A stretch of DNA of 62,653 nucleotides, taken from positions 1 to 62,653 of the IMG/VR virus record IMGVR_UViG_3300011921_000001; one strand, 5' to 3'. A program made the position numbers and the translations under genes. Origin of the DNA: a virus. The notes under the pieces are model-generated. The model ran no database searches and was not told the origin of the DNA. It saw only the letters and a list, made by a program, of their open reading frames with translations. This document shows positions 7,455 through 23,152 of this stretch, piece by piece (the stretch's first letter is position 1; the number at the start of each line of letters is the position of its first letter).

Positions 7455-7540
7455 GGGGGTACGGTGGGGGTCAAAAAGAGCCCTTTTTACCTCGTTTTGG
7501 GTGTCGTCGGGGCCGATCAAATGGGGATGTTCGCACAATA

Positions 7541-7577
7541 GAGGTAGCGGTTAGGGAATCAGCCCTGCCGCTACCTC
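7541..7577 (+). promoter_or_regulatory. 10-bp-stem hairpin immediately upstream of the RBS of the first early gene (5'-UTR structure?)
   Basis: GAGGTAGCGG (7541-7550) pairs with CCGCTACCTC (7568-7577); inner AGGG/CCCT pairing; CAGGAG RBS follows at about 7583. Confidence 0.4.
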
Positions 7578-7596: not shown

Positions 7597-8016
7597 ATGA
7601 GCAAAATCAATTCAACCCAGCAAGCAGCAGTCACCGCATACACCGCGTTCCTCGCTGCGGGCGTATCGTATGGCGACGCTATGCGCAAAGCCGCACAATC
7701 CCTCGGTGGGACACCGTGTCCCACGTTCCTCGGTGAGCTGGCCAAGGTTCACGCGAGACGCTATGAGTGCAGCTATACGTGGGACGGCCAGGGCCGCGCC
7801 GTGTTCTTTGACGGGGATGAGTCCACCCGTGAGACGCGCAATGACGCGGCCCGGAAATCGTGGGCGCGTAACGTGATGGTTTGGTTCACGCCCGAGCGTG
7901 AGGCCGCGCCGAAGGCCAGCGCCCGCGTCAGCCGTGAGGCTCGCGCAGCGGCAAAGGCGTTGATCGAGTTGTGCGGCTCGGTTGCTGCTGCCAAAGCTGC
8001 TCTGGCGGCAGTTTGA
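7597..8016 (+). CDS. Hypothetical early protein (139 aa)
   Basis: Track ORF; CAGGAG 7 nt upstream of the ATG; contains palindrome copy 1 in frame (GGTPCPT). Confidence 0.65.
   Translation: MSKINSTQQAAVTAYTAFLAAGVSYGDAMRKAAQSLGGTPCPTFLGELAKVHARRYECSYTWDGQGRAVFFDGDESTRETRNDAARKSWARNVMVWFTPEREAAPKASARVSREARAAAKALIELCGSVAAAKAALAAV
7706..7724. promoter_or_regulatory. Palindrome copy 1: GTGGGACA-CCG-TGTCCCAC (intragenic)
   Basis: Exact 8+3+8 inverted repeat. Confidence 0.9.
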
Positions 8017-8038
8017 TAACTTCTTTGAATGACTCGAT

Positions 8039-8057
8039 GCGGGTCTGTCCGGCCCGC
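8039..8057 (+). terminator. Possible weak terminator/hairpin after the first early gene
   Basis: GCGGGTC/GGCCCGC stem (one G-U), loop TGTCC, followed by the T-containing stretch TGTTGCATT (no clean U-run). Confidence 0.3.
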
Positions 8058-8104
8058 TGTTGCATTCCCTGTCTAACAGTTTTCCACTTGGCGCAAAACT
8101 GACG

Positions 8105-8158
8105 CTTTCACTTTTCCGCCCAGCGCAACAATCCCCACGTTGCGCCTTTCACTTTTCC
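8105..8158 (+). repeat. Direct repeat CTTTCACTTTTCC (8105-8117, 8146-8158) flanking hairpin GCGCAAC/GTTGCGC (8123-8145)
   Basis: Two exact 13-mers and a 7-bp inverted repeat, in intergenic DNA just upstream of palindrome copy 2. Confidence 0.8.
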
Positions 8159-8164
8159 AAATCC

Positions 8165-8183
8165 GTGGGACAGCGTGTCCCAC
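8165..8183. promoter_or_regulatory. Palindrome copy 2: GTGGGACA-GCG-TGTCCCAC
   Basis: Exact 8+3+8 inverted repeat; ends 22 nt upstream of ATG 8206. Confidence 0.9.
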
Positions 8184-8205
8184 CAAACCTCTAGGAGCTT
8201 CCATC

Positions 8206-8424
8206 ATGACTACCAAACACACCGGCACCATCTCTATCGGCAACCGCGAGTTCACACTCTACGAGGAGCTGCCCCTTGGCGAGACGCGGCCAGAGTTCTG
8301 TATCTGGCGTGTGGTAGCCAGCACAGGCGAGGAGACCGTGCTCGCGTCTGTGAACGCACTCGAAGGCTGGTTCGTGGGCCAGCAGGCAATGGCTGCTCTG
8401 CGTGGGACTCATGACCGCCGTTAA
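8206..8424 (+). CDS. Hypothetical early protein (72 aa; track ORF 8140.. trimmed to the ATG with an RBS)
   Basis: TAGGAGC 7 nt upstream of ATG 8206. The longer track ORF would read through the palindrome. Confidence 0.6.
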   Translation: MTTKHTGTISIGNREFTLYEELPLGETRPEFCIWRVVASTGEETVLASVNALEGWFVGQQAMAALRGTHDRR

Positions 8425-8563
8425 GCGTCAACATCTAGCGCAGCTTCGAAAGCTGCGCGATGAGCTGTACGCCAAGCTGCCCCCACAAGAGCAGCGGCGT
8501 ATCGACGAGGCCAAGCGTCTGCTGGCCCAACGCACCAAGCAACTGCGCTTGTTCCACCTATGA
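8411..8563 (+). CDS. Possible small basic coiled-coil protein (50 aa)
   Basis: ORF below the track cutoff, translated by hand (MTAVKRQHLAQLRKLRDELYAKL...); weak RBS; overlaps the previous gene by 14 nt. Confidence 0.35.
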   Translation: MTAVKRQHLAQLRKLRDELYAKLPPQEQRRIDEAKRLLAQRTKQLRLFHL

Positions 8564-8588
8564 AACAGATTTTTTACTGTCCAAGACT

Positions 8589-8853
8589 AAAAAGTTTCGC
8601 CAACACCTCGGACACCCGCAAACCCGCGTGGTTGCTGGCGTCTCTCAAAATCCGTCCTTCTATCTATCATTTAAAAAACTTTATAGATAAGGTAAAAAAT
8701 CCTTACACACACGCCCCTTCCTTTGTTTCTTTTTTTCTTTCTTGTTGTATGTCCCGCAAAACGATAGATAGACGGACATTTTGCCGATTTCCGCCCGCAA
8801 ACCCGCATGGCTACTGGGTTTCCGGCTGTCACCAAACATCGGCGAAACTTTTT
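8589..8853. repeat. Large imperfect inverted-repeat structure in a 336-bp non-coding island
   Basis: AAAAAGTTTCGCC (8589-8601) is the reverse complement of 8841-8853. TCCGTC..TATCTATC (8651-8668) pairs with GATAGATAGACGGA (8763-8776). Direct CCCGCAAACCCGC sits at 8615-8627 and 8794-8806, with a partial copy at 8753. A pyrimidine tract spans 8714-8748. Confidence 0.85.
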
Positions 8854-8899
8854 AATCATGGTACACTCCTGAGCGTACCAACACTAAAGGACTTTAATC

Positions 8900-9772
8900 A
8901 TGGACAGTCTAGTCAGTCGCCTCCGAAGCATGAGCTACGGGGACGCGCACAACCACCTCATGACCCTTGACCTTCCTGTAGACCTGCGTGTTTCCCTCGC
9001 AGCGAAAGCCAACGAACTGCGGATGCACGACGCCAAGGAGGGGAAGAACGCCAAGCTCATGCACATACACCGCGCTGAGATGTGGCACCGACTGATCGCC
9101 CCCCTCAAGTACACGCTGAGCAACGCCAGGGTAGGGCTGCGGCTCAAGCCCCAGGCCACTGCCCCCGAACGGCACCTCGCGTTCAGTGAGTACATAACGC
9201 TGCTGGAAAAGCTCTTGCTGGGGCTACAGACGCTACGGACATTGCCGGACAACGGCGAGCGCAGGCCCGTGGACATAGCGCAAGAGCGCGGCCTGCCAAA
9301 CAAAGGCGTGCACTGGACGGATTGGGTAGCGGACAGAACGCGCAGGCGCATCGAAGGCTTGTTCTACGCAATACCGTTCGCGCTGAAGACCAAGCGGTTT
9401 GAGCCCTTCAAGCGCCAGATACCCCCGGACATGTTCAAGCGCGATGTGTCGCTGCTGCAAAGGCGCACGTTTAAGGAGCTGGACATACTGCGCCAGGAGA
9501 TAAAAATTATGCGCAAGATCGACTGCATGACGAACGAGCAGCGGGCGTCGCTTGACAAGATGGAGCAGCAGGAGGAGAACATCGTTGCCGCCATTGAGTT
9601 CATGTCACGGGAGCTGGTAAACGAAGTTGTTCCTTGGTCATGGCACGCCATCAACCCGAACCCTAACACACTACCACTTGATGAGGAGGACGAAGCCGCG
9701 CTGCGCCTACAGCTACAGACAGAGCGCAAACCCGCAAAGAAAACCCGCAGGCCCAAACGCTACAACGTATAG
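8900..9772 (+). CDS. Hypothetical early protein (290 aa), basic C-terminus
   Basis: Track ORF; AAAGGA RBS; no motif recognised. Confidence 0.65.
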   Translation: MDSLVSRLRSMSYGDAHNHLMTLDLPVDLRVSLAAKANELRMHDAKEGKNAKLMHIHRAEMWHRLIAPLKYTLSNARVGLRLKPQATAPERHLAFSEYITLLEKLLLGLQTLRTLPDNGERRPVDIAQERGLPNKGVHWTDWVADRTRRRIEGLFYAIPFALKTKRFEPFKRQIPPDMFKRDVSLLQRRTFKELDILRQEIKIMRKIDCMTNEQRASLDKMEQQEENIVAAIEFMSRELVNEVVPWSWHAINPNPNTLPLDEEDEAALRLQLQTERKPAKKTRRPKRYNV

Positions 9773-9789
9773 GCACTGCTCAAGTAACC

Positions 9790-9808
9790 GTGGGACACGG
9801 TGTCCCAC
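9790..9808. promoter_or_regulatory. Palindrome copy 3: GTGGGACA-CGG-TGTCCCAC
   Basis: Exact 8+3+8 inverted repeat starting 18 nt after stop 9772, followed by hairpin GCCGCACA/TGTGCGGC (9828-9854). Confidence 0.9.
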
Positions 9809-9876
9809 AAAGAAAGAATATGGCCATGCCGCACAGCCATGACAAATGTGCGGCACTTGTAAAAAGGAGAAAGCAA

Positions 9877-10098
9877 ATGACGAATGAAGAAAAGCAACAG
9901 ACCATCGCACAGGTGGCCAACGCATGGGTAGCGCTCGATGCGCTCAACGCAGCCATCATGAAGATAGGCGAGGCCGCGTATGAGGCGGGTGATACCTTGG
10001 TGCAGCACCAGCTAGAGGTCGTGCACCACAACTTGGCCAAGGTCAACCGCGAGCTTGTCTCGACCATCAGCCAGATCAACCACATCAAAGGAGAGTGA
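9877..10098 (+). CDS. Hypothetical protein (73 aa; trimmed from track ORF 9790..)
   Basis: AAAAGGAGAAAGCAA directly upstream of ATG 9877. The longer ORF would start inside the palindrome. Confidence 0.6.
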   Translation: MTNEEKQQTIAQVANAWVALDALNAAIMKIGEAAYEAGDTLVQHQLEVVHHNLAKVNRELVSTISQINHIKGE

Positions 10099-10100
10099 AG

Positions 10101-10370
10101 ATGAATATCGCGGTCAAAGACAAAGAGCTAGGCACAGCGTTGATGCGCAGTCCCACGCAGTTGTGGGGCGCAAGGCTAGGCAAAGCAGTTGACATCATAA
10201 AAGAGGGCACGCTGTGCAGCTACGGCGGTGTGCGTGTGGTCGAGGTGCAGGCGTGGAGCAGGGCTATGAAGATATGCCGGGAGTTGCCAGCAGGCGGGCG
10301 CCACGTTGCGACAGCGCACAGCCGTTTGTGTTTTTGGATAGGTGAAGCAATGAACATCAAAGGAGAGTGA
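10101..10370 (+). CDS. Hypothetical protein (89 aa)
   Basis: AAAGGAGAG RBS, ATG 10101; bracketed by an exact 23-bp direct repeat (10083-10105 and 10355-10377). Confidence 0.5.
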   Translation: MNIAVKDKELGTALMRSPTQLWGARLGKAVDIIKEGTLCSYGGVRVVEVQAWSRAMKICRELPAGGRHVATAHSRLCFWIGEAMNIKGE

Positions 10371-10372
10371 AG

Positions 10373-10540
10373 ATGAAGTACTACGTAGAGTTCAAACGCA
10401 TGGCCTACCTTGAGATCGCGGTGGAGGCCGAGACCCCCAGCGAAGCCGAGAACTTGGCATGGGCTGAGATAGATAAAGACCCCGGCAGTCTCGACAAGGA
10501 CTGGTACGTCAACAGCATCAACAAAGGAGAGATCGAATGA
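10373..10540 (+). CDS. Hypothetical acidic protein (55 aa)
   Basis: Hand-translated (MKYYVEFKRMAYLEIAVEAE...); same RBS block as the previous gene; ATGA overlap with the next gene. Confidence 0.55.
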   Translation: MKYYVEFKRMAYLEIAVEAETPSEAENLAWAEIDKDPGSLDKDWYVNSINKGEIE

Positions 10541-10749
10541 AAGCAAACGATATGAAGAACCCCGACAACCTGCACGACGCACTGTCGCACCTGCATACGC
10601 TCACTATGGGCATCGCCAATGACACAGCCAACCTGATGGAGTCATCAACGATCCGGGGCGGGCACCTTGAACCCATCAAAGACGCAGCATTGGACGCCCA
10701 CCTGCTGGTGACATGGATCAAAGACAACATCAAGGAGCTACACAAATGA
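10537..10749 (+). CDS. Hypothetical protein (70 aa), N-terminus MKANDM
   Basis: Track ORF; AAAGGAGAG RBS; the first 19 nt are identical to the start of the gene at 11089. Confidence 0.6.
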   Translation: MKANDMKNPDNLHDALSHLHTLTMGIANDTANLMESSTIRGGHLEPIKDAALDAHLLVTWIKDNIKELHK

Positions 10750-10928
10750 CAAAGAACCCACTACACCACAACGGCATGTTCGCAACGCCCGATGACATGG
10801 AGGCGCTGATGCAGTACTGCGAGCGCTTCACTGGGGGTGAGAGAGTGGTCGCGTTCGTGGCCGCAGGCATGGCGCTGAACCTAGCGCACAAGTACGTAGA
10901 GCAAGCACTTAAAGGAGAAGACGAATGA
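10746..10928 (+). CDS. Hypothetical protein (60 aa; trimmed to the ATGA-coupled start)
   Basis: ATG 10746 overlaps stop 10749; in frame with track ORF 10713..10928. Confidence 0.5.
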   Translation: MTKNPLHHNGMFATPDDMEALMQYCERFTGGERVVAFVAAGMALNLAHKYVEQALKGEDE

Positions 10929-11092
10929 AAACTGAATGGCTAAAAACTATCCACGCCATGCGTGACGCAGGTTACTTGGTAATCATCTGGTCGCCCGATG
11001 AACTCGGGGACGTTGACGCAAGCCACATTGAGGGCGTGCTGATTGAGCGTGGCAACGACATGATCGAACAACTGCAAGGAGAAACCAAATGA
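10925..11092 (+). CDS. Hypothetical protein (55 aa)
   Basis: Hand-translated (MKTEWLKTIHAMRDAGYLVIIWSPDELGD...); AAGGAG RBS; ATGA overlaps at both ends. Confidence 0.55.
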   Translation: MKTEWLKTIHAMRDAGYLVIIWSPDELGDVDASHIEGVLIERGNDMIEQLQGETK

Positions 11093-11265
11093 AAGCAAAC
11101 GATATGACCGAGTCCCAGCTGTTCAAAGCAGCGTACAAGATGTGCGACCAAGGCGGCAGCTTCGCATTTGCGATAGGGCAAGCGTACTTCTGCGCCGACA
11201 GCACAAACAAAGTGCGGCTGGTTGACGCCTTCGCTGACCTGTTCGAGAGGTACGCCCATGAATAA
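11089..11265 (+). CDS. Hypothetical protein (58 aa), N-terminus MKANDM
   Basis: Hand-translated (..GGSFAFAIGQAYFCADSTNKVRLVDAF..); AAGGAGAAACC RBS. Confidence 0.6.
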   Translation: MKANDMTESQLFKAAYKMCDQGGSFAFAIGQAYFCADSTNKVRLVDAFADLFERYAHE

Positions 11266-11422
11266 CCCACAGCAGTTACGCAACAGGCTCATGGAGCAGG
11301 GCTACACATGGGACGAGGCCGAGCAGCAGGTCACGGACTGGGCATCGGACGCCTACGACCAAGAGCAAGACCGCAAGGCCGACGAGTATTTTCTCAACCG
11401 TAAAGAAGGAGATGGCAAATGA
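11258..11422 (+). CDS. Hypothetical acidic protein (54 aa)
   Basis: ATG 11258 overlaps the previous stop; in frame with track ORF 11222..11422. Confidence 0.5.
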   Translation: MNNPQQLRNRLMEQGYTWDEAEQQVTDWASDAYDQEQDRKADEYFLNRKEGDGK

Positions 11423-11643
11423 ACTACGACCTCAACACCGTAGGGGGCATGAACCGCGCCGTCGAGTGGACGCGCAACCTGTTCGAGAACATCAAAGAGG
11501 GTGGCGTGTGGGTAGTGCCGCGCTCGATGACCATACTCAAAGTCTACAAGTCAGAGCGCCGTGTCTTGCTTGCGCAGGGCATAGTGCCAGACCCATCGCT
11601 GGCCCGCGTCATCAAGGCGATGGGCTGGACAGTTACCGAGTGA
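11419..11643 (+). CDS. Hypothetical protein (74 aa)
   Basis: Track ORF; AAGGAG RBS; ATGA overlap. Confidence 0.6.
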   Translation: MNYDLNTVGGMNRAVEWTRNLFENIKEGGVWVVPRSMTILKVYKSERRVLLAQGIVPDPSLARVIKAMGWTVTE

Positions 11644-11647
11644 AAGC

Positions 11648-11666
11648 GTGGGACACAGTGTCCCAC
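11648..11666. promoter_or_regulatory. Palindrome copy 4: GTGGGACA-CAG-TGTCCCAC
   Basis: Exact 8+3+8 inverted repeat starting 5 nt after stop 11643, followed by hairpin GCCGGGCA/TGCCCGGC (11676-11698). Confidence 0.9.
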
Positions 11667-11720
11667 CAGCGCATCGCCGGGCAGCGCCAATGCCCGGCAC
11701 TAGCAACTAGGAGAAAGCAA

Positions 11721-11921
11721 ATGAAACCGAAGATTTATAGGGCGTGGATAAACCAGCCAAGCACGGCACAACAATTGCACAGACTACACGGCGTGACCTG
11801 CATTGCCGTTGATAACGGCGAGCCTAGCCTGACGCTTTACTTCACCGAAGGGGGCACGCACTCAACGACCGCGCTCAGAGAGTGCATAACAAGCGTAAAG
11901 CTGTCAAGCGCCGAGAAGTAA
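11721..11921 (+). CDS. Hypothetical protein (66 aa)
   Basis: CTAGGAGAAAGCAA RBS. The gene is bracketed by the exact 23-bp direct repeat CACTAGCAACTAGGAGAAAGCAA (11698-11720 and 11923-11945). Confidence 0.55.
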   Translation: MKPKIYRAWINQPSTAQQLHRLHGVTCIAVDNGEPSLTLYFTEGGTHSTTALRECITSVKLSSAEK

Positions 11922-11947
11922 CCACTAGCAACTAGGAGAAAGCAACC

Positions 11948-13327
11948 ATGCGTTTTTACAACAACATCTTCGCCCCCGCATCGTATATCGTCAGCAAGCA
12001 CCGTCCGTGGTTCGACCGCGAGAGACTGCGCAGCGAGCTGCACCCAGCCGTCAAGACCTTGCTTGAGCGTGACCACCGTCCCGTCTACTGGCAGCGTCTC
12101 TTGCTTGAGTGGCCGCATGTCTCTGACACTGACCGTGAGCGCATCGCATACACCCGCGATGAGCGCTCAGGTGAGGCCGACAGGCAGACGATCACCACGG
12201 TGGGCAAGTACTTGTCTCGCCACTTCGACCTGCCTGACCACATCATCCGTGACGCTGTAGCCAGCTACATCGGCAACACGGACAAGTACAAGATGCTGCG
12301 CACGGTCGATGCGATGGTGGATGCGGTCAACAACGGGCCGCACTCGTGCATGAAGTGGACATGTCGTGACAATATACGCTGCACCGATGGCATCGAGCGC
12401 CATCCCTACGCCGCGTATGACCCGCAGTATGGCTGGCACATGGCTGTGCGCATATCACCGGAGGGTGAGATCGTGGGTAGGGCGGTGTTGAATGTGGATG
12501 ATGAGGATGTCAACTATTGGGTCAGATCGTTCGGCTACCAACCGGGCAGCAGCTACTCGCACACCGACCAGAAGTTAGAAGCGTGGCTCAAGGAGCAGGG
12601 GTATGTCAAGTATGCCCACTGGCACGAAGATGCGCAGCTTGCGTACTACAAGGTCAATCGAGCTGACTTCCTCGCGCCATACGTTGACGGCGACCTGCAC
12701 ACAGCGCGGCTTGAGACCAGCCATGCAGATGGCCCCAAGGTGTTCCTCGACAGCGATGGCGACTACGAGCTGCGCAGGCAAGACGGTGTGTCCGAGGAGA
12801 CCAGCAGGTACACCTGCCCTCAATGCGGTGAGCGCGTTGACGCGGACGATATGACAAGTATCGGCTACCACGGCGATGACAGCGCGTGCCAGAGCTGCAT
12901 CGAGAACGACTACACGTTGGTCATGGGCCGTTGCGGTGACTCGTACTACGTGAGCAACGACGACGCTATCGAGGTCGATGGTGACTGGTACGACTGCCAC
13001 TACCTTGAGCGCAACGACATCGTGCAGCTAGAGAATGGCGACTACGCACGCCGTGACAACGCGGTGCTGTGCGTGGACGATGACGAGTGGTACAGCGAAG
13101 ATGACAGCGACATCATTTACTGCGAGTACGACGACAACTACCACCACATCGACAACTGCGTAGAGACCCAGGACAAAGGCTGGGTGCACGAGGACGATGC
13201 GTGGCAGTGCGAGGGCAGCAACAAGTGGTACAGCGACAGCACGGACTTCGTGATCGTCGATGACATGAAGTACCACCCTGAACATGCCCCCGAGATCGAA
13301 GAAACTGAAACCACCACTAAGGAGTAA
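11948..13327 (+). CDS. Hypothetical protein (459 aa) with a Cys- and Asp/Glu-rich C-terminal third
   Basis: Track ORF with a strong RBS; CPQCG...CQSC pairs, then repeated D/E/Y/W-rich segments; no family recognised. Confidence 0.65.
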   Translation: MRFYNNIFAPASYIVSKHRPWFDRERLRSELHPAVKTLLERDHRPVYWQRLLLEWPHVSDTDRERIAYTRDERSGEADRQTITTVGKYLSRHFDLPDHIIRDAVASYIGNTDKYKMLRTVDAMVDAVNNGPHSCMKWTCRDNIRCTDGIERHPYAAYDPQYGWHMAVRISPEGEIVGRAVLNVDDEDVNYWVRSFGYQPGSSYSHTDQKLEAWLKEQGYVKYAHWHEDAQLAYYKVNRADFLAPYVDGDLHTARLETSHADGPKVFLDSDGDYELRRQDGVSEETSRYTCPQCGERVDADDMTSIGYHGDDSACQSCIENDYTLVMGRCGDSYYVSNDDAIEVDGDWYDCHYLERNDIVQLENGDYARRDNAVLCVDDDEWYSEDDSDIIYCEYDDNYHHIDNCVETQDKGWVHEDDAWQCEGSNKWYSDSTDFVIVDDMKYHPEHAPEIEETETTTKE

Positions 13328-13332
13328 TCACC

Positions 13333-14442
13333 ATGCGTAAATCATCTATCCTGTACAAGACCCTGTGCCGTGCGCTGTCCATGAAGCGCCCCCATTACGG
13401 TGAGGGTGCATCGCTCTTCACGGGCTGGCTGTGCGACAACGTGCCGCGCCACCTCGACCTGACCATCGACGTATCTGGCAACGTGCACATTGACGCACGC
13501 ACATCGACCAAGCACCGCACACTCTTTGTCGCGCACGTTGACACCGTGCACCGCGCTGATGGCCCCAACAAGTTCATCAAGGCACACGGCAAGTGGTTCG
13601 CCAAGGACGCGCCTCTCGGTGCTGACGATGGCGCTGGCTGTGCGCTGCTCATGCACCTGCTTCACAGCGGTGTGCCTGGGTACTACATCTTCACGCAGGG
13701 CGAGGAGGTGGGCGGTGTCGGTGCCAAGCACTTGGCCAAGGAGCACGCTGACTTGCTTGCACAGTTCGACCGTGCCATCGCGTTCGACAGACGCGGCATC
13801 GACTCGGTCATCACGCACCAAGGGTATGGCCGCTGCTGCTCCGATGTGTTCGCCCAGGCGCTGTCTGATGCCCTCAACGGGGACGACAGGCTGATGTACC
13901 TGCCCGACGACACAGGTGTGTACACCGACACTGCCGAGTTCACGGGCATCATCCCCGAGTGCACCAACGTGAGCGTAGGGTATGACCACGAGCACTCGGA
14001 CAAGGAGTCGCTCGACACCTACCACTTCATGGCGCTGGCTGACCGTGTGGTGCAGATCAAGTGGGACGAGCTGCCCACCTCGCGTGACCCGCTGGTGGTC
14101 GAGAGCAAGTGGGACAGCAGGTGGGACACCGCCTGGGACACCGCCCTGACGACCAGTGTCAGTGCTCCCCCTGGCAGCACGCAAAAGTACATCGACGGCT
14201 GGACGGGGGAGGACGATGTCAAGGAGGCCATCTACGACGCGCTAGCAGGCTACCCAGGCTACCTTGTGGAGCTGATCTGTGAGTCGGCGTACCCAGAAGA
14301 CCCCGAGCTTGCACGGCGCTACATACGCACAAGCAAGCTGCGCGACCCAGACCTGCTCAAAGCGCACCTCGCTGATCTGTTCACCTACGGCTCCGATGCC
14401 GTGCTTGCACGACTGTTTGACGAGGCGTACGCAGAGGTGTAA
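13333..14442 (+). CDS. Clan-MH (M20/M28/M42-like) metallopeptidase-fold protein (369 aa)
   Basis: Ordered motifs VAHVDTV, LGADDGAGCA, TQGEEVGG and GYDHEHS match the His/Asp/Glu-Glu/His co-catalytic zinc-ligand pattern. Confidence 0.55.
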   Translation: MRKSSILYKTLCRALSMKRPHYGEGASLFTGWLCDNVPRHLDLTIDVSGNVHIDARTSTKHRTLFVAHVDTVHRADGPNKFIKAHGKWFAKDAPLGADDGAGCALLMHLLHSGVPGYYIFTQGEEVGGVGAKHLAKEHADLLAQFDRAIAFDRRGIDSVITHQGYGRCCSDVFAQALSDALNGDDRLMYLPDDTGVYTDTAEFTGIIPECTNVSVGYDHEHSDKESLDTYHFMALADRVVQIKWDELPTSRDPLVVESKWDSRWDTAWDTALTTSVSAPPGSTQKYIDGWTGEDDVKEAIYDALAGYPGYLVELICESAYPEDPELARRYIRTSKLRDPDLLKAHLADLFTYGSDAVLARLFDEAYAEV

Positions 14443-14445
14443 TAA

Positions 14446-14462
14446 TGTCCAACGCTTGACAA
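14446..14462 (+). promoter_or_regulatory. 17-bp motif TGTCCAACGCTTGACAA, copy 1
   Basis: Exact copy of 25181-25197; intergenic, 4 nt after stop 14442; overlaps the UUCG-loop hairpin 14457-14476. Confidence 0.8.
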
Positions 14463-14476
14463 CCTTCGGGTTGTCA
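14457..14476 (+). promoter_or_regulatory. 8-bp stem hairpin with TTCG loop (no U-run)
   Basis: TGACAACC-TTCG-GGTTGTCA. Confidence 0.6.
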
Positions 14477-14505
14477 GGCACCATTCACAACAAGGAGAAA
14501 GCAAA

Positions 14506-14667
14506 ATGAACGTAAGAATGCTGCGCCATGTGCGCCAGATGTGGAACGTGGATCACGTTTCGCAGGAGATCAACCGTTCCAACCAACGCAAGTGGGTGAG
14601 GTCTGTGCGGCTCTTGGGCAACAAGTGGCTGCTTGCACAACACATCGAGAGGAAGACCCATGCCTGA
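14506..14667 (+). CDS. Hypothetical basic protein (53 aa)
   Basis: Hand-translated (MNVRMLRHVRQMWNVDHVSQEINRSNQRKWVRSVRLLG..); CAAGGAGAAAGCAAA RBS. Confidence 0.6.
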   Translation: MNVRMLRHVRQMWNVDHVSQEINRSNQRKWVRSVRLLGNKWLLAQHIERKTHA

Positions 14668-15193
14668 CATTCAGACTGCCCTTAGCCGCGCCCTGACCGA
14701 GTGGTCAAAAGATGAACCAGACCAACAAGTACAACAACCCCAAGAGAAAGCACCTATGCCAAAGCCACACTACGCCATCACCAACAACGTCACCCGCGCC
14801 ACGTTCGAGTTCGTGCGCGACAGGCCGGGGGTTCACTACAAAGCTGCCGTCAACGCGCTCACGGCACAAGGGTTCAAGGAGTCCTCGATCACAGCCCTCT
14901 TCTCACAGATGCGCAGGGCTGGGCTGCTTGTGCGAAGTGCGGATGGCCGTTACACAGCAGTGGGCAAAGAGTACGTACCGATGAAGGCGTCTGCGAAATC
15001 CAACCACAAGTCCGTCAAACACTTCACCAACAAGCCTGCCAAGGCCGCACCTACCCCTGCGCCCCACGAGCAACCCTCTCCAGCCCCTGCGGTGACTGTC
15101 AACGATGTTGACTACTTGCTGAACACCCTACCCATCAAGCAGGCCCGTGAGCTGTACGATGCGCTGCACAAAATCTTTGGAGGTGCGAAATGA
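14660..15193 (+). CDS. Putative winged-helix DNA-binding protein (177 aa; trimmed from 14633)
   Basis: The segment TRATFEFVRDRPGVHYKAAVNALTAQGFKESSITALFSQMRRAGLLVRSADGRYT looks MarR/wHTH-like; GAGAGGAAG RBS before ATG 14660. Confidence 0.45.
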   Translation: MPDIQTALSRALTEWSKDEPDQQVQQPQEKAPMPKPHYAITNNVTRATFEFVRDRPGVHYKAAVNALTAQGFKESSITALFSQMRRAGLLVRSADGRYTAVGKEYVPMKASAKSNHKSVKHFTNKPAKAAPTPAPHEQPSPAPAVTVNDVDYLLNTLPIKQARELYDALHKIFGGAK

Positions 15194-15405
15194 AAGACAC
15201 AGGCGGGCCAGCGTTTCCACGCGACCACGTTCATATGGGTCACAACGGCATGACCCTGCGCGACTACTTCGCAGCCAAGGCGATGCAAACTCTGTTGGGA
15301 AGCGAGTACACCAGCAAGCACGGCCTACACGAAGGTTGGATGTACGCTATGGCGCATGAGTCGTATATGGTGGCAGACGCCATGCTGAAAGCGAGGGGGC
15401 AGTGA
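15190..15405 (+). CDS. Hypothetical protein (71 aa)
   Basis: Track ORF; ATGA overlap; GGPAFP...GMTLRDYFAAKA recalls a common small prophage protein (from memory). Confidence 0.6.
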   Translation: MKDTGGPAFPRDHVHMGHNGMTLRDYFAAKAMQTLLGSEYTSKHGLHEGWMYAMAHESYMVADAMLKARGQ

Positions 15406-15743
15406 ACAACCCCTTTGACTTGGCCAACTACAAGCGCCAGATCACCATGCACAAGGAGAACGCCGCAACAAAGTCGGCGTACCAGCAGACCTCCGTGGTC
15501 AACAGACAGCGGGCCAAGGGCATCGAGCCGAGCCTGCCGTACTCAGACAAAGCACCCGCAGCGGAGCCAGAGAAGTTTGTGGCTGACATGCCGGTGATGC
15601 CTAAATACGACCGCAATGCCGCGAGGAGGCAGAGGAACTATGAGAAGCAGTTGCTGAACTGCAAGCATGTGTGGCTGACCCTTACAGACCTGCCGCTTTA
15701 CAAGTGCAATGAGTGCGGAACTTTTTTAAGGATTGAGAAATGA
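15402..15743 (+). CDS. Hypothetical protein (113 aa) with a C-terminal zinc-ribbon-like CxH...CxxC
   Basis: GTG start in a GTGA overlap; C-terminus NCKHVW...YKCNECG. Confidence 0.55.
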   Translation: MNNPFDLANYKRQITMHKENAATKSAYQQTSVVNRQRAKGIEPSLPYSDKAPAAEPEKFVADMPVMPKYDRNAARRQRNYEKQLLNCKHVWLTLTDLPLYKCNECGTFLRIEK

Positions 15744-17251
15744 CTGAACAAACCGAAGCCCAGCGGCTTGCTGATGAGTTGGTTGCTTTGCACGGATACC
15801 CACTATCCATCAAAGCCGCCGCCGAGCTGCGCCGCTTGGATGCAGAGCTTAAGCGCAAGTCAGAAGCAATACAGCGTCTGTGGGCAGAGCGCGATAGCTT
15901 GAGAACATCAATGGAGCAACTGCTGAAGGCGCTGGAGCCTGACAGGCAACTTCTCCAGCAGGCGCTGGATGCTCTGCAAGGCTTGGCTGACTACAGGTAC
16001 ACAAAGCCTGTAGAGACGACGATGAAAGCTTTGAGCGATAGGCTGGCGCACTGTGACCGCTGCGGTAAGAAGATGGGTGGGGAGGGTGACATACACACTT
16101 GCACCCCAAAGCCAGAGCAGGAGCCTGTGTCGTGCCTAAGCAAAACCCAAGCAAAGGCAATACTTGGTTTGGCGCTTGATTTAGAGAAAACGGGGCGAAT
16201 GGTTGTAATAACGCACGGCCAAGAGCGCACTGATTTTGTTGCTAGAAATAGAAACATTCAGTGCGCTTTGGAGGACGCCTTGCGCAACGCCACCACCCCA
16301 CCCGCAGCACAGCCAGAGCTGGCACTAGAGGGTATGCCCGAGTTTCTGGCCGATCTGACGCGCAGCCGTACAAAGTATCCAGCAAACGGGCGCATGTTCG
16401 ACGGGCTCATGGGTGAGATTGACGAGTTGCGCCGGGCCTATGCTGGTGACGGCGATGTACGCGCCGAGGCATTCGATGTTGCGGTGTGCGCTTACCGAAT
16501 TGCCACAGAAGGGGATGCGGGGGGCAATGCGCTTCTCACCACCCCACCCGCAGCAGCACAGCAGGAGCCTGTGGCGCTTATTCGTACTTGGCACAAGAAC
16601 GGCGACCAGCACGCAGAGCTTGTGGATTGGGGGATGGCCTTGCAATTTTTGCCCGATGGCGAACATTGCCTTTACACCCCACCCGCAGCAGCACAGCCAG
16701 AGCAGGAGCCGGTGGCGTTTGAAAAATGGTGGGAAGACCAAGGGCAGTTTTGTCGGGCTGGCGGTTGGGAATACGTTGCTTTCCGCGCCTGGGAGGCTGC
16801 GCTTGCCACCCCACCCGCACAACCAGCACCTGTGCAGGATCAAAAGTCATGCAAACTTTGCACGCATGAGCAACGGCACTACATGGAAATGACGGGGCCG
16901 TGCAGAGCGTGTCGTTTTTACTCAAACTTTGCTTCTGCCACCCCACCCGCAGCAGCACAGCCAGCAGCATGGGAGCATCACGCAAAGAAACTGACTCAAT
17001 GGCTGCACTGCATGTCGTACAACGACAGCTACTTTGGGGAGCCTGCCGGTCTCGTCAAGCAAGTAACCGCTTCACTGAATCGCCTGATTGGAGCCACCCC
17101 ACCCGCAGCACAGCGCACATGGGTCGGGCTGACGGATGCTGAACTGGCTGACATGCACGCCACGCTAATGGTCAAGCTTCGAGGATGCTACGAGACAAAG
17201 GATTTGTACAAGGCCATTGAAGCCAAGCTAAAGGAGAAGAACAATGGATGA
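15740..17251 (+). CDS. Modular 503-aa protein: coiled-coil N-terminus, then six different small modules joined by TPPAAAQ linkers
   Basis: Track ORF. The linker DNA ACCCCACCCGCAGCA recurs at 16295, 16541, 16676, 16940 and 17096; a shorter 12-nt copy (ACCCCACCCGCA) is at 16808. Confidence 0.65.
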   Translation: MTEQTEAQRLADELVALHGYPLSIKAAAELRRLDAELKRKSEAIQRLWAERDSLRTSMEQLLKALEPDRQLLQQALDALQGLADYRYTKPVETTMKALSDRLAHCDRCGKKMGGEGDIHTCTPKPEQEPVSCLSKTQAKAILGLALDLEKTGRMVVITHGQERTDFVARNRNIQCALEDALRNATTPPAAQPELALEGMPEFLADLTRSRTKYPANGRMFDGLMGEIDELRRAYAGDGDVRAEAFDVAVCAYRIATEGDAGGNALLTTPPAAAQQEPVALIRTWHKNGDQHAELVDWGMALQFLPDGEHCLYTPPAAAQPEQEPVAFEKWWEDQGQFCRAGGWEYVAFRAWEAALATPPAQPAPVQDQKSCKLCTHEQRHYMEMTGPCRACRFYSNFASATPPAAAQPAAWEHHAKKLTQWLHCMSYNDSYFGEPAGLVKQVTASLNRLIGATPPAAQRTWVGLTDAELADMHATLMVKLRGCYETKDLYKAIEAKLKEKNNG

Positions 17252-17576
17252 CATCATTGCAATGGCCCGTGAAGCGGGTGGCCTTGGTTACGTTCATGAC
17301 GCAGGAGATGAACCGCACAAGTGGCAATTCACGCCAACAGAACTGCAAGCCTTTGCAGCCCTTGCTCAAGCTGCTGAACGGAGCCGCCAACATGACGAAA
17401 TTGAGCGACTGACCAATCTGTGCTACGAATACCTGGGCGAGCTTACAGCCTTACGGGCTGTAAAACAGGCGCAGGACATGATGCGGGACGCGTTGACTAT
17501 CGGGTCGGCCTGGGTACGGGACGGAAAGCGCCTTGAACCGACCAGCGTTTACAAGAGTATGGAGGAGGACACATGA
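17244..17576 (+). CDS. Hypothetical protein (110 aa), DDIIAMAREAG / FAALAQAAER module
   Basis: Track ORF; 8-nt overlap with the previous gene; shares both motifs with the next gene. Confidence 0.6.
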   Translation: MDDIIAMAREAGGLGYVHDAGDEPHKWQFTPTELQAFAALAQAAERSRQHDEIERLTNLCYEYLGELTALRAVKQAQDMMRDALTIGSAWVRDGKRLEPTSVYKSMEEDT

Positions 17577-18297: not shown

Positions 18298-18440
18298 AAA
18301 AACTTCTTTGCTGGATTTTTGGACACCGCAACACCATCAGTTGCATAACCGATTGGGAGGTTACACACGACAGGTGCGGACGATGCGGCACGGACCTACC
18401 CATTGGATACCCGCACCATCAATCAAGGGGAAACACATGA
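18294..18440 (+). CDS. Small zinc-binding-type protein (48 aa)
   Basis: Hand-translated (MKKLLCWIFGHRNTISC...HDRCGRCG...); AGAGGA RBS; ATGA overlaps. Confidence 0.55.
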   Translation: MKKLLCWIFGHRNTISCITDWEVTHDRCGRCGTDLPIGYPHHQSRGNT

Positions 18441-22163: not shown

Positions 22164-22174
22164 AAGGAGAAAGC

Positions 22175-23151: not shown

Positions 23152-23152
23152 T

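Follow-up and report, generated by a model that had tools for sequence, protein, structure and literature searches.

Lineage-specific palindromic hairpins at early gene boundaries in a family of environmental phages

The early arm and its four palindromes

The window analyzed here is the whole 62,653-nt stretch of IMG/VR virus record IMGVR_UViG_3300011921_000001, and it represents a whole phage-like genome with a rightward early/replication arm and a leftward structural arm. Near the start of the early arm we found four exact copies of the palindrome GTGGGACA-N3-TGTCCCAC, whose positions and contexts are given in Table 1 along with the neighboring genes and structured elements. No further copy appears in the window even when 3 mismatches are allowed, with an expectation of 0.00 for exact matches and 0.32 at 3 mismatches. 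The observation made in the original prediction, that four invariant 19-base palindromes are confined to the first 4 kb of the early arm, is thus confirmed, as are its statements on where each copy lies. Isolated half-sites are not enriched in the window, and one cluster of them belongs to a coding repeat.

Table 1. Palindromes and associated features in the window (coordinates are those of the 62,653-nt stretch).
Position	Strand	Feature	Sequence or stems	Context and supporting observations
7534..7539	+	Putative -10 box of the early promoter for gene 1 (inferred from sequence)	CACAAT	The block (T/C)A(C/T)AAT-AGAGG is conserved about 55-60 nt upstream of the gene 1 start in 21 loci
7541..7577	+	5' leader hairpin ahead of the gene 1 ribosome-binding site	GAGGTAGCGG ... 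CCGCTACCTC	Predicted energy -30.3 kcal/mol; the arms differ yet remain complementary in relatives
7597..30144		Early/replication arm (rightward)		
7597..8016	+	Gene 1 (139 aa); candidate trans-acting factor (inferred)		Variable N-terminal domain containing the palindrome, conserved C-terminal ~45 aa
7706..7724	+	Palindrome copy 1	GTGGGACAccgTGTCCCAC, center CCG	Inside gene 1, reading GGT GGG ACA CCG TGT CCC ACG (GGTPCPT); at the same codons in 24 relatives
8039..8077	+	GC hairpin plus conserved tail, terminator/attenuator-like	GCGGG...CCCGC; tail CTGTTGCATTCCCTGTCTAAC	After gene 1; a palindrome precedes it in 15 of 20 gene 1 alleles, and the window has lost that copy
8105..8117 and 8146..8158		13-nt direct repeat	CTTTCACTTTTCC	Flanks the hairpin at 8123..8145
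8123..8145		Hairpin	GCGCAAC/GTTGCGC	Precedes copy 2
8165..8183	+	Palindrome copy 2	Center GCG	Ends 22 nt before ATG 8206, about 10 nt before the ribosome-binding site (AGGAG)
8900..9772		290-aa gene		Stop codon at 9770-9772
9790..9808	+	Palindrome copy 3	Center CGG	Starts 18 nt after stop 9770-9772; followed by pseudoknot 1
9819..9854	+	H-type pseudoknot 1	Stem A 9819-9824/9836-9841; stem B 9828-9835/9847-9854	Precedes ACTTGTAAAAAGGAGAAAGCAAATG; no Rfam family matches
11648..11666	+	Palindrome copy 4	Center CAG	Starts 5 nt after stop 11641-11643; followed by pseudoknot 2
11669..11698	+	H-type pseudoknot 2	Stem A 11669-11672/11684-11687; stem B 11676-11683/11691-11698	Precedes ACTAGCAACTAGGAGAAAGCAAATG
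14061..14141		Cluster of half-sites		Coding KWD/RWD/AWD repeat
14660..15193		Candidate HTH ORF		Only a weak PaaX-like hit, E 0.02
18969..19181		Candidate HTH ORF		Nothing informative
26747..27025		Candidate HTH ORF (92 aa)		Sub-threshold HTH/Cro-like Pfam hits (weak HTH_23 and P22-Cro-like)

One correction to the original prediction is needed, as it described the GC-rich 8-bp hairpins after copies 3 and 4 as unrelated. Each of them is stem B of the same conserved H-type pseudoknot, and both stems of this pseudoknot co-vary across 11 sequences.

Distribution and variation among related phages

Conservation in related phages had been named beforehand as a test of the motif, and it proved to be family-wide. 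Of 80 IMG/VR loci that carry the motif (of 83 stretches hit in all), 45 are relatives, with 111 copies in all. These related environmental phage contigs carry 3-6 copies each, all in the early arm, and 95 palindromes were counted in early regions against 0 in 109,884 nt of late-arm DNA. Individual related loci are designated below by L followed by a number.

Relatives retrieved by protein homology carry other palindromes at the same syntenic places (AGAGAGA, GGGGACA, GGGGAGA, GGGGTCA, GGGAAGA, and GGGTAGA), and the two arms co-vary and are always complementary. At the site of copy 3, L204-209 carry AGAGAGAttTCTCTCT and L010 carries GTGAGACAcccTGTCTCAC, with conserved flanks, whereas the site orthologous to copy 4 is canonical in L058 and is GTGAGACAccaTGTCTCAC in L204. 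Sites are re-typed in place between conserved flanks: the window has GTGGGACA where L204 has AGAGAGA, although the neighboring 290-aa protein is 75% identical. Each lineage keeps its own stem sequence at most sites, but genomes with mixed, quite different palindrome types are common. Spacer length also varies within single genomes, being 2 and 3 nt in L021 and 2 and 4 nt in L204. The three within-type variants are transition pairs, and G:T and A:C intermediates are seen, although single mismatches do not favor G:U on the sense strand (about 3 against 7).

The element is under selection at the nucleotide level. In 24 loci that encode the type-A gene 1, every synonymous third position inside the arms of the coding copy is invariant, while the loop codon and the flanking codons vary. 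In L064, the pairing is kept through GGG>GGA plus CCC>TCC, at the cost of Pro>Ser. The element is also strand-asymmetric. Among 61 non-coding sites, C occupies loop position 9 in 46, against G at position 11 in 17 (p = 3e-4), although these statistics use partly orthologous sites and are not fully independent. The asymmetric variant CCGGGACA-N3-TGTCCCAC occurs 17 times, counting duplicate contigs, always facing the same way, and its reverse complement was not found. The statement in the original prediction that the loop bases are variable is thus only half right, as the four loops of the window do vary, but family-wide the sense-strand loop is biased to CCN.

The positions of the sites resemble punctuation. 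Of 186 sites, 110 have a stop codon within 40 nt upstream, most often 3-5 nt away, and 65 have a ribosome-binding site and start codon within 60 nt downstream, among which the arrangement seen at copy 2, a hairpin 1-13 nt before the ribosome-binding site, recurs. In L219, L211, and L223, the palindrome lies between the conserved -10-like box and the ribosome-binding site of gene 1. In 15 of 20 gene 1 alleles, a hairpin lies 3-5 nt (13 nt in one) after the gene 1 stop, followed by a GC hairpin and a T-rich tail. However, T-rich tracts are no more frequent after the palindromes (12 of 61) than A-rich tracts before them (11 of 61), so most copies are not terminators themselves.

Gene 1 itself combines a variable N-terminal domain with a conserved C-terminal domain. 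In AGAGAGA-type relatives, the N-domain is replaced, while the visibly near-identical C-terminal ~45 aa is kept. The N-domain type does not map one-to-one to hairpin type, as L211 (type B) and L212/L214 (type C) both have GGGTAGA. A structural model of the gene 1 protein (pLDDT 86) has a predicted helix-helix-[GGTPCP turn]-helix-beta-hairpin topology without any significant structural match, and no significant HTH family or fold hit was found for it.

The same hairpin types were also found in bacteria. Genomic islands (Limnohabitans and others) carry leaders in which these hairpins sit in tandem between a sigma-70-like promoter and an intrinsic terminator, ahead of a gene module, with exact reuse of four types in a bacterial array. 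This arrangement hints at a host trap or decoy.

Possible functions of the palindromes

The original prediction considered operators for a dimeric HTH protein, RNA hairpins acting as processing or stability elements, and N4-type hairpin promoters, and preferred the first. This interpretation is only partly supported: the inference of sequence-level selection and the doubt about N4-type promoters hold, but the preference for operators is not supported. An RNA-level hairpin fits best, although the data do not fix its role. What the analysis itself establishes is that the palindromes are real, conserved, co-varying in their arms, strand-asymmetric, and located at the positions described, whereas RNA as the active form, the existence of a trans-acting factor, the identity of that factor, and an antitermination or processing outcome are inferences.

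Our best reading, which remains tentative, is that the palindromes are this phage's copies of a family-wide early-operon hairpin read by a type-specific phage factor. In this view, host RNA polymerase would read the early arm from the putative promoter upstream of gene 1, so that every palindrome would be part of the polycistronic early RNA, where it would fold into an 8-bp stem with a 3-nt loop (predicted -11.7 kcal/mol). The hairpins lie at fixed punctuation points, in or just before gene 1, 3-5 nt after stop codons, 1-13 nt before ribosome-binding sites, and in front of a terminator-like hairpin or a conserved pseudoknot leader. The factor would recognize the hairpin mainly through its stem and 3' side, and might then control read-through, processing, or translation of the downstream early genes, in the manner of a lambda nut site with N. 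A factor is implied by the re-typing of sites in place, and the gene 1 protein is a possible candidate, as it is the first early protein, its gene always carries a hairpin or is preceded by one and is usually followed by a hairpin plus a terminator-like structure, and its N-terminal domain is exchanged between relatives that differ in hairpin type. The other stems at the same places in relatives, always complementary, the transition-pair variants, and the variable spacers favor a hairpin over a rigid duplex site. The conserved -10-like box and leader hairpin ahead of gene 1 and the co-varying pseudoknots after copies 3 and 4 point to a transcribed context, and the promoter-terminator frame of the bacterial arrays provides an independent hint for RNA. 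It should be noted, however, that invariant stems with largely free loops are the usual signature of duplex-DNA operators and not of RNA-protein recognition, which normally reads loops and bulges, and that mixed hairpin types in one genome are awkward for any single specific factor.

The second possibility, which we consider unlikely but not negligible, is that the palindromes are duplex-DNA operators, or stoperator-like roadblocks, bound by a dimeric phage regulator that would shut off or autoregulate early transcription. The perfect dyad with invariant arms and a largely free center is consistent with this, as is the constant half-site polarity in all lineages (R-rich, then W-S-A toward the center). 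The lineage-specific sequences and the exchangeable N-domain on a conserved C-domain in gene 1 resemble immunity-type repressors, and the predicted three-helix plus beta-hairpin topology of gene 1 could equally be a DNA-binding winged helix. The binder could be the gene 1 protein or, of the three HTH candidates named in the original prediction, the Cro-like 92-aa protein with its weak HTH_23 and P22-Cro-like hits (Table 1). In addition, an unrelated gut-phage group uses GTGGGAC as direct and inverted half-site repeats around an AT-rich core, so this sequence can serve as a duplex protein site. By contrast, the variable spacers and mixed types within genomes, and the strand asymmetry of the loop bias and of the CCGGGACA..CCCAC variant, do not favor operators. 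Most sites are also kilobases from any promoter and hug stop codons and ribosome-binding sites, and a promoter and terminator around the bacterial arrays make sense for RNA but not for a single-copy DNA decoy.

It is less likely that these are generic structural hairpins of early mRNA (3'-end stabilizers, attenuators, or translational-coupling spacers) with no dedicated factor, their sequence identity being kept by slow compensatory evolution plus recombination between phages and between sites, as with the PeSL promoter/stem-loop cassettes that mediate gene shuffling in T4-type phages (PMC4122927; PMC2839356). The relative Pseudomonas phage KPP25 has ordinary, non-identical hairpins at the analogous places (the 5' leader, after gene 1, and after gene 3), the sites flank small, fast-turning-over early ORFs in frequently mosaic genomes, and variants follow G:U-type transition paths. 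However, drift does not explain the in-place replacement of one type by a completely different one between conserved flanks, or the within-genome uniformity across sites that share no flanking homology, and gene conversion cannot explain it either because it needs flanking homology. The conserved asymmetric flanks (CC...AC) indicate more than structure, and the exact reuse of four types in a bacterial array implies specific recognition.

Similarly unlikely is anti-defense RNA mimicry, in which the phage hairpins would imitate those of the host island's leader RNA, which may act as an antitoxin-like or regulatory RNA, in order to neutralize the island during infection. The island layout (promoter, structured RNA array, terminator, and small proteins) resembles type III toxin-antitoxin loci, phage mimicry of an antitoxin RNA is documented for pseudo-ToxI in phage PhiTE (PMC3475682), and the hairpins would be expressed from the first DNA to enter the cell. 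On the other hand, the syntenic placement at gene boundaries, the copy inside gene 1, and the link to terminator-like hairpins and pseudoknots point to a cis role in the phage's own expression. In addition, the array hairpins all differ, unlike antitoxin repeats, and no toxin family was recognized in the island.

Hairpin promoters of the N4 type, extruded from supercoiled DNA and read on the template strand by a virion-delivered RNA polymerase, are very unlikely. The short stem, the 3-nt loop, the 3-6 copies confined to the first-entering early region, and a giant virion protein of 2230 aa would fit, and so would the purine-rich template-strand loop (NGG, with a central G in about 63% of sites), the better conservation of the stem arm nearer the downstream gene, and a short CAAAC-type leader that often runs straight into the ribosome-binding site. 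However, N4 recognition needs a conserved loop (-11 purine, -10 G), -8 G, and +1 C (PMC4496689), whereas here the loop varies and the template-strand centers in the window are G, G, C, and T. The giant protein shows an LPD38 domain and an HEIIGH motif and has no PDB sequence match, N4 vRNAP entries included, and no other ORF of 400 aa or more resembles an RNA polymerase. Moreover, a conserved -10-like box already precedes gene 1, one copy sits inside a gene, and the co-varying pseudoknots point to read-through transcripts.

Comparison with known regulatory elements

Among the closest known systems are the lambda-type nut sites (boxB hairpin) with N protein (PMC2724277). In both cases a short RNA hairpin, here inferred, would lie in early transcripts, in the leader of (or inside) the first early gene and again after the first gene, ahead of a terminator, the hairpin sequence is lineage-specific, and the candidate reader is the first early protein, with a variable N-terminal part and a conserved C-terminal part. 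A competitor can also exploit the hairpin, as HK022 Nun binds the lambda nascent transcript (PMC4124055). However, boxB is read through its loop by an arginine-rich peptide, whereas here the loop is largely free and the stem is invariant, there are 4-6 copies per genome instead of 2, and gene 1 has no detectable similarity to N. No boxA was recognized, as TGTCTAAC only loosely resembles it, and antitermination remains an inference by analogy.

The RNase III processing sites of the T7 early region are likewise several related structured elements in the 5' leader and between the early cistrons of a host-transcribed early operon of a podovirus, and would leave hairpin-protected ends. RNase III substrates are long irregular helices, whereas the element described here is an 8-bp perfect stem, which is too short, and is sequence-invariant rather than structure-conserved. 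The N4 virion-RNA-polymerase promoters share a small hairpin with a 3-nt loop, in a few copies and in the early region only (PMC4496689), but differ in the respects given above, namely the lack of a vRNAP homolog, the variable loop, the invariant stem, the copy inside a gene, and the putative host-type promoter.

Dispersed phage operators, such as the cluster-A mycobacteriophage stoperators, P1 C1 operators, and Cro/CI operators, are also many near-identical short sites scattered through a transcription unit, often at gene boundaries, which are lineage-specific and co-evolve with a regulator. Those sites act on duplex DNA, and stoperators are asymmetric, whereas here we see co-variation of arms, variable spacing, strand-asymmetric constraints, and RNA-type neighbors (pseudoknots). 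Finally, the PeSL cassettes of T4-type phages are repeated, conserved intergenic stem-loop cassettes among small early ORFs and are associated with mosaic gene exchange (PMC4122927; PMC2839356). PeSLs are composite terminator/promoter sequences that include an early promoter (PMC4122927), whereas the elements described here are a bare 16-19-nt hairpin with lineage-specific types, and they are mirrored in bacterial arrays.

Occurrence, conservation and exchange of the palindromes

The palindrome GTGGGACA-N3-TGTCCCAC occurs exactly four times in the window, and no further match was found even when three mismatches were allowed, against a chance expectation of 0.00 exact copies and 0.32 copies at three mismatches. 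The observation made in the original prediction is therefore confirmed, and its statements on the positions of the copies are correct, with one exception: the GC-rich hairpins following copies 3 and 4, which had been described as unrelated, are two instances of one conserved H-type pseudoknot. Half-sites were not found to be enriched, as the additional GTGGGAC(A) sequences encode a WD repeat inside the peptidase-like gene. A literature search for the sequence returned only irrelevant eukaryotic papers.

The window is a complete phage-like genome, in which a leftward structural arm holds the terminase, portal, tail fibre and a 2230-aa LPD38 protein, and a rightward arm, starting at gene 1, holds a family-A DNA polymerase, an SNF2 helicase and a DUF927 primase-helicase. 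It has no close relative among deposited phages, as no DNA similarity was detected by megablast or blastn, and the DNA polymerase is only about 32% identical to those of Rhizobium RHph_TM and Pseudomonas KPP25-like phages. The coordinates of the features are compiled in the following table, in which L-numbers denote retrieved viral or bacterial loci.

Coordinates of the palindromes and of neighboring or related features in the window and in other loci
Sequence	Position	Strand	Feature
Window	7252-7470		Divergent control region
Window	7252-7285	+	Terminator-like hairpin
Window	7293-7308		Palindrome TGTCTAGCGTTAGACA
Window	7321-7336		Palindrome AATTTTTATAAAAATT
Window	7448-7470		G-rich block GGGGGGTGGGGGTACGGTGGGGG
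Window	7597-8016		Gene 1, first gene of the rightward arm
Window	7706		Start of palindrome copy 1
Window	8039-8077		Conserved tail after gene 1
Window	8070-8077		Half-site TGTCTAAC after gene 1
Window	8105-8117 and 8146-8158		13-nt direct repeat CTTTCACTTTTCC, flanking the next hairpin, just upstream of copy 2
Window	8123-8145		Hairpin GCGCAAC/GTTGCGC
Window	8165		Start of palindrome copy 2
Window	8206-8424		Second early gene, encoding N-R-E-F-T-L without a palindrome there
Window	8560-8900		AT-rich, gene-free stretch with nested inverted repeats
Window	9790		Start of palindrome copy 3
Window	9819-9854		H-type pseudoknot after copy 3
Window	11648		Start of palindrome copy 4
Window	11669-11698		H-type pseudoknot after copy 4
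Window	14061-14141		WD repeat containing extra GTGGGAC(A)
Window	26747-27025		ORF with sub-threshold HTH/Cro-like hits
Window	30283-36975	-	2230-aa giant protein
L204	1326-1745		Gene 1 (AGAGAGA-type phage)
L082	8585-9013		Gene 1
L204	2105		Palindrome within the second early gene (AGAGAGA-type phage)
L205	5325		Palindrome within the second early gene (AGAGAGA-type phage)
L204	2429-2460		Overlapping alternative hairpins
L206	5630-5680		Overlapping alternative hairpins
L054	6662-6944		Example of two copies in the unrelated gut-phage group
L225 (Pseudomonas phage KPP25, NC_024123.1)	24021-24885		Early-gene hairpins with differing stems
L110 (Limnohabitans parvus II-B4, NZ_NESN01000001.1)	1895-2275		Island leader with hairpin array
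L467	2880-3500		Island leader with hairpin array
L468	3000-3500		Island leader with hairpin array
L469	1752-2040		Island leader with hairpin array
L471	150-600		Island leader with hairpin array
L472	1652-2016		Island leader with hairpin array
L135 (Pseudomonas sp. LRF_L74)	800-1440		GTGGnnnA-type palindrome array

An exact-pattern scan of IMG/VR hit 83 stretches, of which 80 were listed as loci, and 45 of these are relatives of the window phage, for example with portals up to 88% identical. Together they hold 111 exact copies, typically 3-6 per contig within a few kb. In loci that also cover structural genes, no palindrome of any type lies in 109,884 nt of late-arm DNA, against 95 in early regions. 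A scan of 185,579 species genomes, in which at least 120 hits were recorded, gave mostly single hits in unrelated taxa; about 139 are expected by chance in 596 Gb by our arithmetic. The palindrome appears to be a family-wide element rather than a host repeat of the REP/BIME type, which would have many dispersed copies in the host chromosome. The exceptions were REP-like doublets containing the palindrome in Acidobacteriota MAGs (L084, L112, L118, L140, L150, L155, and L160; TGGGcCAnnCTGTCCC-N8-10-GGGC-GTGGGACAnnnTGTCCCAC), a hairpin array that constitutes the one Limnohabitans hit, and further palindrome arrays. The latter include dense arrays of 7-11 different palindromes of the form AACTTCnnnnCCAAsTTGGnnnnGAAGTT in L117 (an uncultured Clostridiales MAG), L175, and L202, and a GTGGnnnA-type array in a Pseudomonas genome. 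Among the viral hits, an unrelated group of gut-phage contigs (L014, L020, L024, L029, L031, L037, L041, L051, L054, and L069) has two exact copies 218-225 bp apart, together with GTGGGAC direct and inverted half-site repeats around an AT-rich core, between a DUF927 primase-helicase gene and a helicase gene, which looks like an origin or operator. As these contigs share only a distant primase-helicase with the window phage and have no gene 1 homologue, a link through the DUF927 primase was rejected. We consider the gut-phage contigs, the acidobacterial doublets, and the palindrome arrays of L135, L117, L175, and L202 to be independent systems.

Selection acts on the nucleotides as well as on pairing. 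Copy 1 is found at the same codons of gene 1 in 24 loci, and all synonymous third positions within its arms (GGT GGG ACA ... TGT CCC ACG) are invariant, while the third position of the loop codon and the flanking codons vary freely. The relative L064 has GTGGAACA..TGTTCCAC at five sites, and in its coding copy the 3'-arm change costs a Pro>Ser substitution. Within the GTGGGACA group, the compensated variants are GTGGAACA/TGTTCCAC, GTGAGACA/TGTCTCAC, and GCGGGACA/TGTCCCGC, all three of which are transition pairs, with G:T and A:C intermediates present. A strand test based on G:U pairs was uninformative.

As the pattern scan can only recover exact copies, relatives were also retrieved through the 290-aa early protein. 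These 21 loci lack the motif but carry other repeated palindromes at the same syntenic points, with a common shape consisting of a purine-rich 5' arm ending in W-S-A, a 2-4 nt center, and the complementary arm.

Palindromes at the syntenic points in relatives retrieved by protein homology
Loci	Palindrome
L204-L209	AGAGAGA-N2/4-TCTCTCT
L210	GGGAAGA-AT-TCTTCCC
L211, L212, L214	GGGTAGA-NN-TCTACCC
L216-L219	GGGGACA-NN-TGTCCCC and GGGGAGA-NN-TCTCCCC together
L220-L222, L224	GGGGACA-NN-TGTCCCC
L223	GGGGTCA-NN-TGACCCC

The type can be exchanged in place. After the 290-aa gene, the window has GTGGGACAcggTGTCCCAC whereas L204 has AGAGAGAttTCTCTCT at that spot, although its 290-aa protein is 75% identical and its downstream pseudoknot is nearly the same. 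Mixed genomes are common: L071 has 2 AGAGAGA and 3 GTGGGACA palindromes, L050 has 4 and 1, L082/L043 have 3 and 1, and L204 has 5 AGAGAGA and 1 GTGAGACA. Spacer length also varies within genomes, as L021 has three N2 copies alongside an exact N3 copy and a one-mismatch N3 coding copy, and L204 has N2 and N4. It is doubtful that these are generic structural hairpins homogenized by recombination, in the manner of PeSL cassettes, since this fails to explain in-place type switching without flanking homology. In AGAGAGA-type phages, the second early gene has acquired a palindrome inside its coding sequence (K-R-E-F-S-L = AAG AGA GAA TTC TCT CTG in L204 and L205), a site created by mostly synonymous or conservative changes. 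KPP25 has the same genome layout and has hairpins in the leader of the first early gene, after gene 1, and after gene 3, but their stems all differ and their loops contain GGA (C-GGA-G / C-GGGA-G), resembling CsrA/RsmA-type sites.

Context and strand asymmetry within the early operon

Of 186 distinct sites of all types, 110 have the stop codon of an ORF of 40 codons or more within 40 nt upstream, most often 3-5 nt away, and 65 have a ribosome-binding site plus start codon within 60 nt downstream, usually with the ribosome-binding site 1-13 nt after the hairpin. Upstream of gene 1, all relatives share a -10-like box, (T/C)A(C/T)AAT-AGAGG, followed by a leader hairpin whose arms differ but stay complementary, and in L219, L211, L223, L220, and L221 a palindrome sits between that box and the gene 1 ribosome-binding site. 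The elements are therefore very probably transcribed by host RNA polymerase. In 15 of 20 distinct gene 1 alleles, a palindrome lies 3-5 nt (13 nt in one allele) after the gene 1 stop and is followed by a GC hairpin and the conserved, T-rich tail CTGTT..TTCC..TGTCTAAC. The window has the tail but has lost that palindrome, so that only the intragenic copy precedes this structure.

Copies 3 and 4 are each followed by an H-type pseudoknot lying directly upstream of a conserved leader of the next gene, ACTNGNAACTAGGAGAAAGCAAATG. Stem A is 4-12 bp and stem B is GCCGnnnn/nnnnCGGC, and both stems co-vary in 11 sequences, which is hard to explain except as RNA structure. The palindrome itself is predicted to form a stable RNA hairpin (-11.7 kcal/mol). 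In the divergent control region, the palindromes and the G-rich block recur in most of the relatives compared, and the terminator-like hairpin in many of them. The half-site TGTCTAAC of this region recurs after gene 1. The AT-rich stretch downstream of copy 2 contains AAAAAGTTTCGCC near 8580 with its complement GGCGAAACTTTTT near 8845, CGCAAACCCGCgTGG twice, and CTATCTATC/GATAGATAG. In most relatives a palindrome copy directly precedes this region, which may be a second promoter region or an origin. In some relatives (L206 and L204), overlapping alternative hairpins precede it, with GTGAGACgcgcTGTCTCAC sharing its 3' arm with TGTCTCAccaaTGAGACA followed by a T-run, an attenuator-like arrangement in which the palindrome would compete with a terminator stem.

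The element is strand-asymmetric. In 61 non-coding canonical sites, loop position 9 is C in 46, while the mirror position 11 is G in only 17 (p = 3e-4), and CCN loops outnumber NGG loops 29 to 3. In addition, a variant, CCGGGACA-N3-TGTCCCAC, occurs 17 times in six loci, some of them duplicate contigs, always with this polarity relative to the early genes, and its reverse complement is never seen. Deviations concentrate in the outer 5' arm, while the 3' CCCAC is kept. Neither asymmetry is predicted by a symmetric dimer on duplex DNA, although some sites are orthologous and the counts are not fully independent. An RNase P/tRNA-like reading (-1 U, a G-C pair, and a 3' ACCA) was suggested by CCCAC-CA and the CC..AC variant, but was dropped because the other hairpin types lack any ACCA flank.

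Gene 1 is a two-domain mosaic, in which N-terminal domains of at least four unrelated types (A-D) sit on a conserved C-terminal ~45 aa (…SARISREAR…), as seen by comparing the window with L204, L082, L211, L223, and L220. Type A embeds GTGGGACA..TGTCCCAC (GGTPCPT) and type B of the AGAGAGA lineage embeds AGAGAGAATTCTCTCT (ERILS), while other types have the hairpin in the 5' leader instead. The window and L204 differ by an N-domain swap, although their neighboring genes are 63-76% identical. Searches of Pfam and PHROGs gave nothing for gene 1 (only chance-level Pfam hits, E about 0.09), the 72-aa and 290-aa proteins, or the 459-aa and 503-aa proteins. The AlphaFold models of gene 1 (pLDDT 86) and of the 290-aa protein (pLDDT 85, all-helical) had no significant Foldseek match in PDB, and that of gene 1 had none in BFVD. 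The 290-aa protein does not track hairpin type, with 75% identity to AGAGAGA-type relatives against 24-29% to same-type ones.

Hairpin arrays in bacterial genomic islands

The single Limnohabitans hit, on the L. parvus II-B4 chromosome, is a tandem array of seven different hairpins (fold z = -10.9) lying between a sigma-70-like promoter and an intrinsic terminator (CCACCcaacGGTGG followed by six T). Its members are CAGATAGAAgTTCTATCTG, GAGAGAGAATTCTCTC, AACTTTTAAggTTAAAAGTT, GTGGAACAgtaTGTTCCAC, GTGAGACAcggTGTCTCAC, CTGTGAGAaatCTCACAG, and GTGGGACAtcgTGTCCCAC. Four of the seven are the hairpin types that co-occur in the window's lineage, and two of them, GTGGAACA and GTGAGACA, are exact 19-mers with 0 expected. 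The GTGGGACA, GTGGAACA, GTGAGACA, and AGAGAGA types stand side by side. Two hairpins of the array resemble the repeats of the phage's AT-rich stretch. Downstream lie ORFs of 62, 96, 628, and 178 aa, of which the last is SprT-like, and a VWA-domain protein lies upstream. PADLOC recognized no defense system here, and only weak similarity to a type I specificity subunit was found in the 628-aa protein.

The 628-aa protein has 62 homologues. Eight contexts with DNA were retrieved, all of which show a widespread, conserved module encoding proteins of about 60, 97, and 620 aa, or its 620-aa core, in island-like neighborhoods (TnsD/TniQ, BrxR, an EH signature, Macro, HD, and an SNF2 helicase); a ninth context, without DNA, adds an integrase and a PLD-SNF2 protein. 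The module often includes a SprT-like protein. Five of the eight show a clear promoter-array-terminator leader, whereas L470 has a minimal one and L466 shows no terminator. Across these leaders, the arrays comprise 3-14 different palindromic hairpins and contain the phage hairpin types (GTGGGACA, GTGGAACA, GTGAGACA, AGAGAGA, GGGACA-N2/3, GGGGAGA, and GGGTCA).

Hairpins included in the leader arrays of homologous island loci
Locus	Hairpins
L472	GTGAGACAactTGTCTCAC
L468	GGGACAaaTGTCCC; GGGACAtggTGTCCC
L467	GTGAGACAatgTGTCCCAC; CGGGTCAcaTTGACCCG
L471	GGGGAGAaaTCTCCC

Many CTAACA-N-TGTTAG palindromes also occur in the arrays, reminiscent of the phage's GTCTAGCGTTAGAC at 7293-7308 in the divergent control region. 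No protein homology was found between the island proteins and the phage-locus ORFs. Two loose gapped-pattern scans, one viral and one metagenomic, returned only chance hits, and a strict tandem pattern found nothing in viral contigs.

A layout of promoter, hairpins, terminator, and genes makes sense if the hairpins act in RNA, in that read-through could be triggered by a phage factor, or the RNA could act as a decoy, whereas it makes little sense for a single-copy duplex decoy. A more far-reaching view, which we regard as speculative and on balance unlikely, is that the phage hairpins are one side of an arms race. In this view, the array would act either as an infection sensor, in which a phage hairpin-dependent antiterminator forces read-through into the island genes, or as an RNA decoy that soaks up the phage factor, and the diversification and mixing of hairpin types among phages would be escape from this trap. 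The converse, that the phage hairpins mimic the island RNA in a pseudo-ToxI-like manner (PMC3475682), also appears unlikely. The presence of the same "words" strung together in bacterial leaders suggests that hosts read or mimic phage regulatory hairpins, and, if so, this would be a new type of infection sensor or RNA decoy. It would also supply an approach to host assignment, with Limnohabitans suggested as a host for this lineage.

Candidate mechanisms and comparison with known regulatory elements

Overall, the palindrome is a real, strongly selected, lineage-specific cis element of the early operon. Our preferred but tentative reading is a transcribed hairpin recognized by a type-specific factor that controls read-through, processing, or translation of early genes, with the gene 1 protein as the obvious candidate reader. 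While the recurrence, nucleotide-level conservation, exchange of types, and strand asymmetry come directly from the sequences, transcription, action as RNA, and the existence, identity, and effect of a reader are inferred, and the gene 1 N-domain type is not one-to-one with hairpin type. The abundant, uncultured phage group concerned (379 gene 1 homologues; complete genomes of about 62-64 kb) has no functional annotation for its early genes, for which the hairpins provide a concrete, testable code of fixed punctuation points, lineage-specific "words", and a candidate reader. At least ten stem types occur at identical positions, a natural specificity-swap series that is ideal for dissecting how a short perfect stem, rather than a loop, is recognized.

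No Rfam family matched at the gathering threshold anywhere in the window. None of the four window copies is followed by a T-run, and in relatives T-rich tracts follow only 12 of 61 sites, no more than the A-rich tracts that precede 11 of 61, so the element is not in general a terminator. With only 8 bp, the stem also falls short of the extended double-stranded stem, roughly two helical turns, of a T7-type RNase III processing site.

Promoters of the N4 type have hairpins of 5-7 bp with a 3-nt loop in the early region, and the window agrees with this in having an 8-bp stem, slightly longer than in N4, a 3-nt loop, and four copies in the first 4 kb of the early arm. N4 promoters are also characterized by supercoil-driven extrusion, SSB dependence, and a transcript 5' end just downstream of the hairpin. 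However, N4 promoters require conserved template-strand bases (-11 purine, -10 G, -8 G, and +1 C) and a vRNAP, a virion-packaged T7-like RNA polymerase (PMC4496689), whereas the loop here is variable, with template-strand centers of G, G, C, and T in the window and NGG rather than G-R-A family-wide. At the sequence level, the 2230-aa protein shows only LPD38, at its C-terminus, and phrog_9854, without a PDB sequence hit, and no RNA-polymerase family was found in any large ORF. With its long coiled-coil-like stretches and an HEIIGH zincin-like motif, this protein looks like a polyvalent ejected protein rather than an RNA polymerase. N4-type promoters are therefore very unlikely.

The interpretation in the original prediction was partly supported: its doubt about N4-type promoters holds, but its preference for operators of a dimeric HTH protein is not supported. 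Duplex operators remain the main rival, though we consider them unlikely. They are favored by the pattern of an invariant stem with a free center, and all four window copies have the N3 spacing, but the fixed half-site spacing fails in relatives, where N2 and N3 occur together in L021 and N2 and N4 in L204-L206 and L209, and they are contradicted by the exchange and mixing of types, the strand asymmetry, and the island leaders. Furthermore, no sigma-70-like match on the + strand lies near any copy, and the sites hug stop codons and ribosome-binding sites rather than adjoining a promoter. As for a cognate protein, one window ORF has HTH/Cro-like hits that are sub-threshold, and the predicted gene 1 structure is winged-helix-like only in topology.

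The lambda-type nut (boxB) system differs in that an arginine-rich N peptide recognizes the loop specifically, whereas loops vary and stems are fixed in this element. No boxA (NusB/E site) was recognized next to the palindromes, and the conserved TGTCTAAC after gene 1 only loosely resembles CTCTTTAACA, by our own comparison with the textbook consensus. An RNA hairpin downstream of the early promoter, upstream of a terminator, and near the first early gene is a feature of nut sites that is matched by the predicted hairpins in the 5' leader or inside gene 1 and after the gene 1 stop, and the layout parallels lambda nutL-N-tL1 and cro-nutR-tR1.
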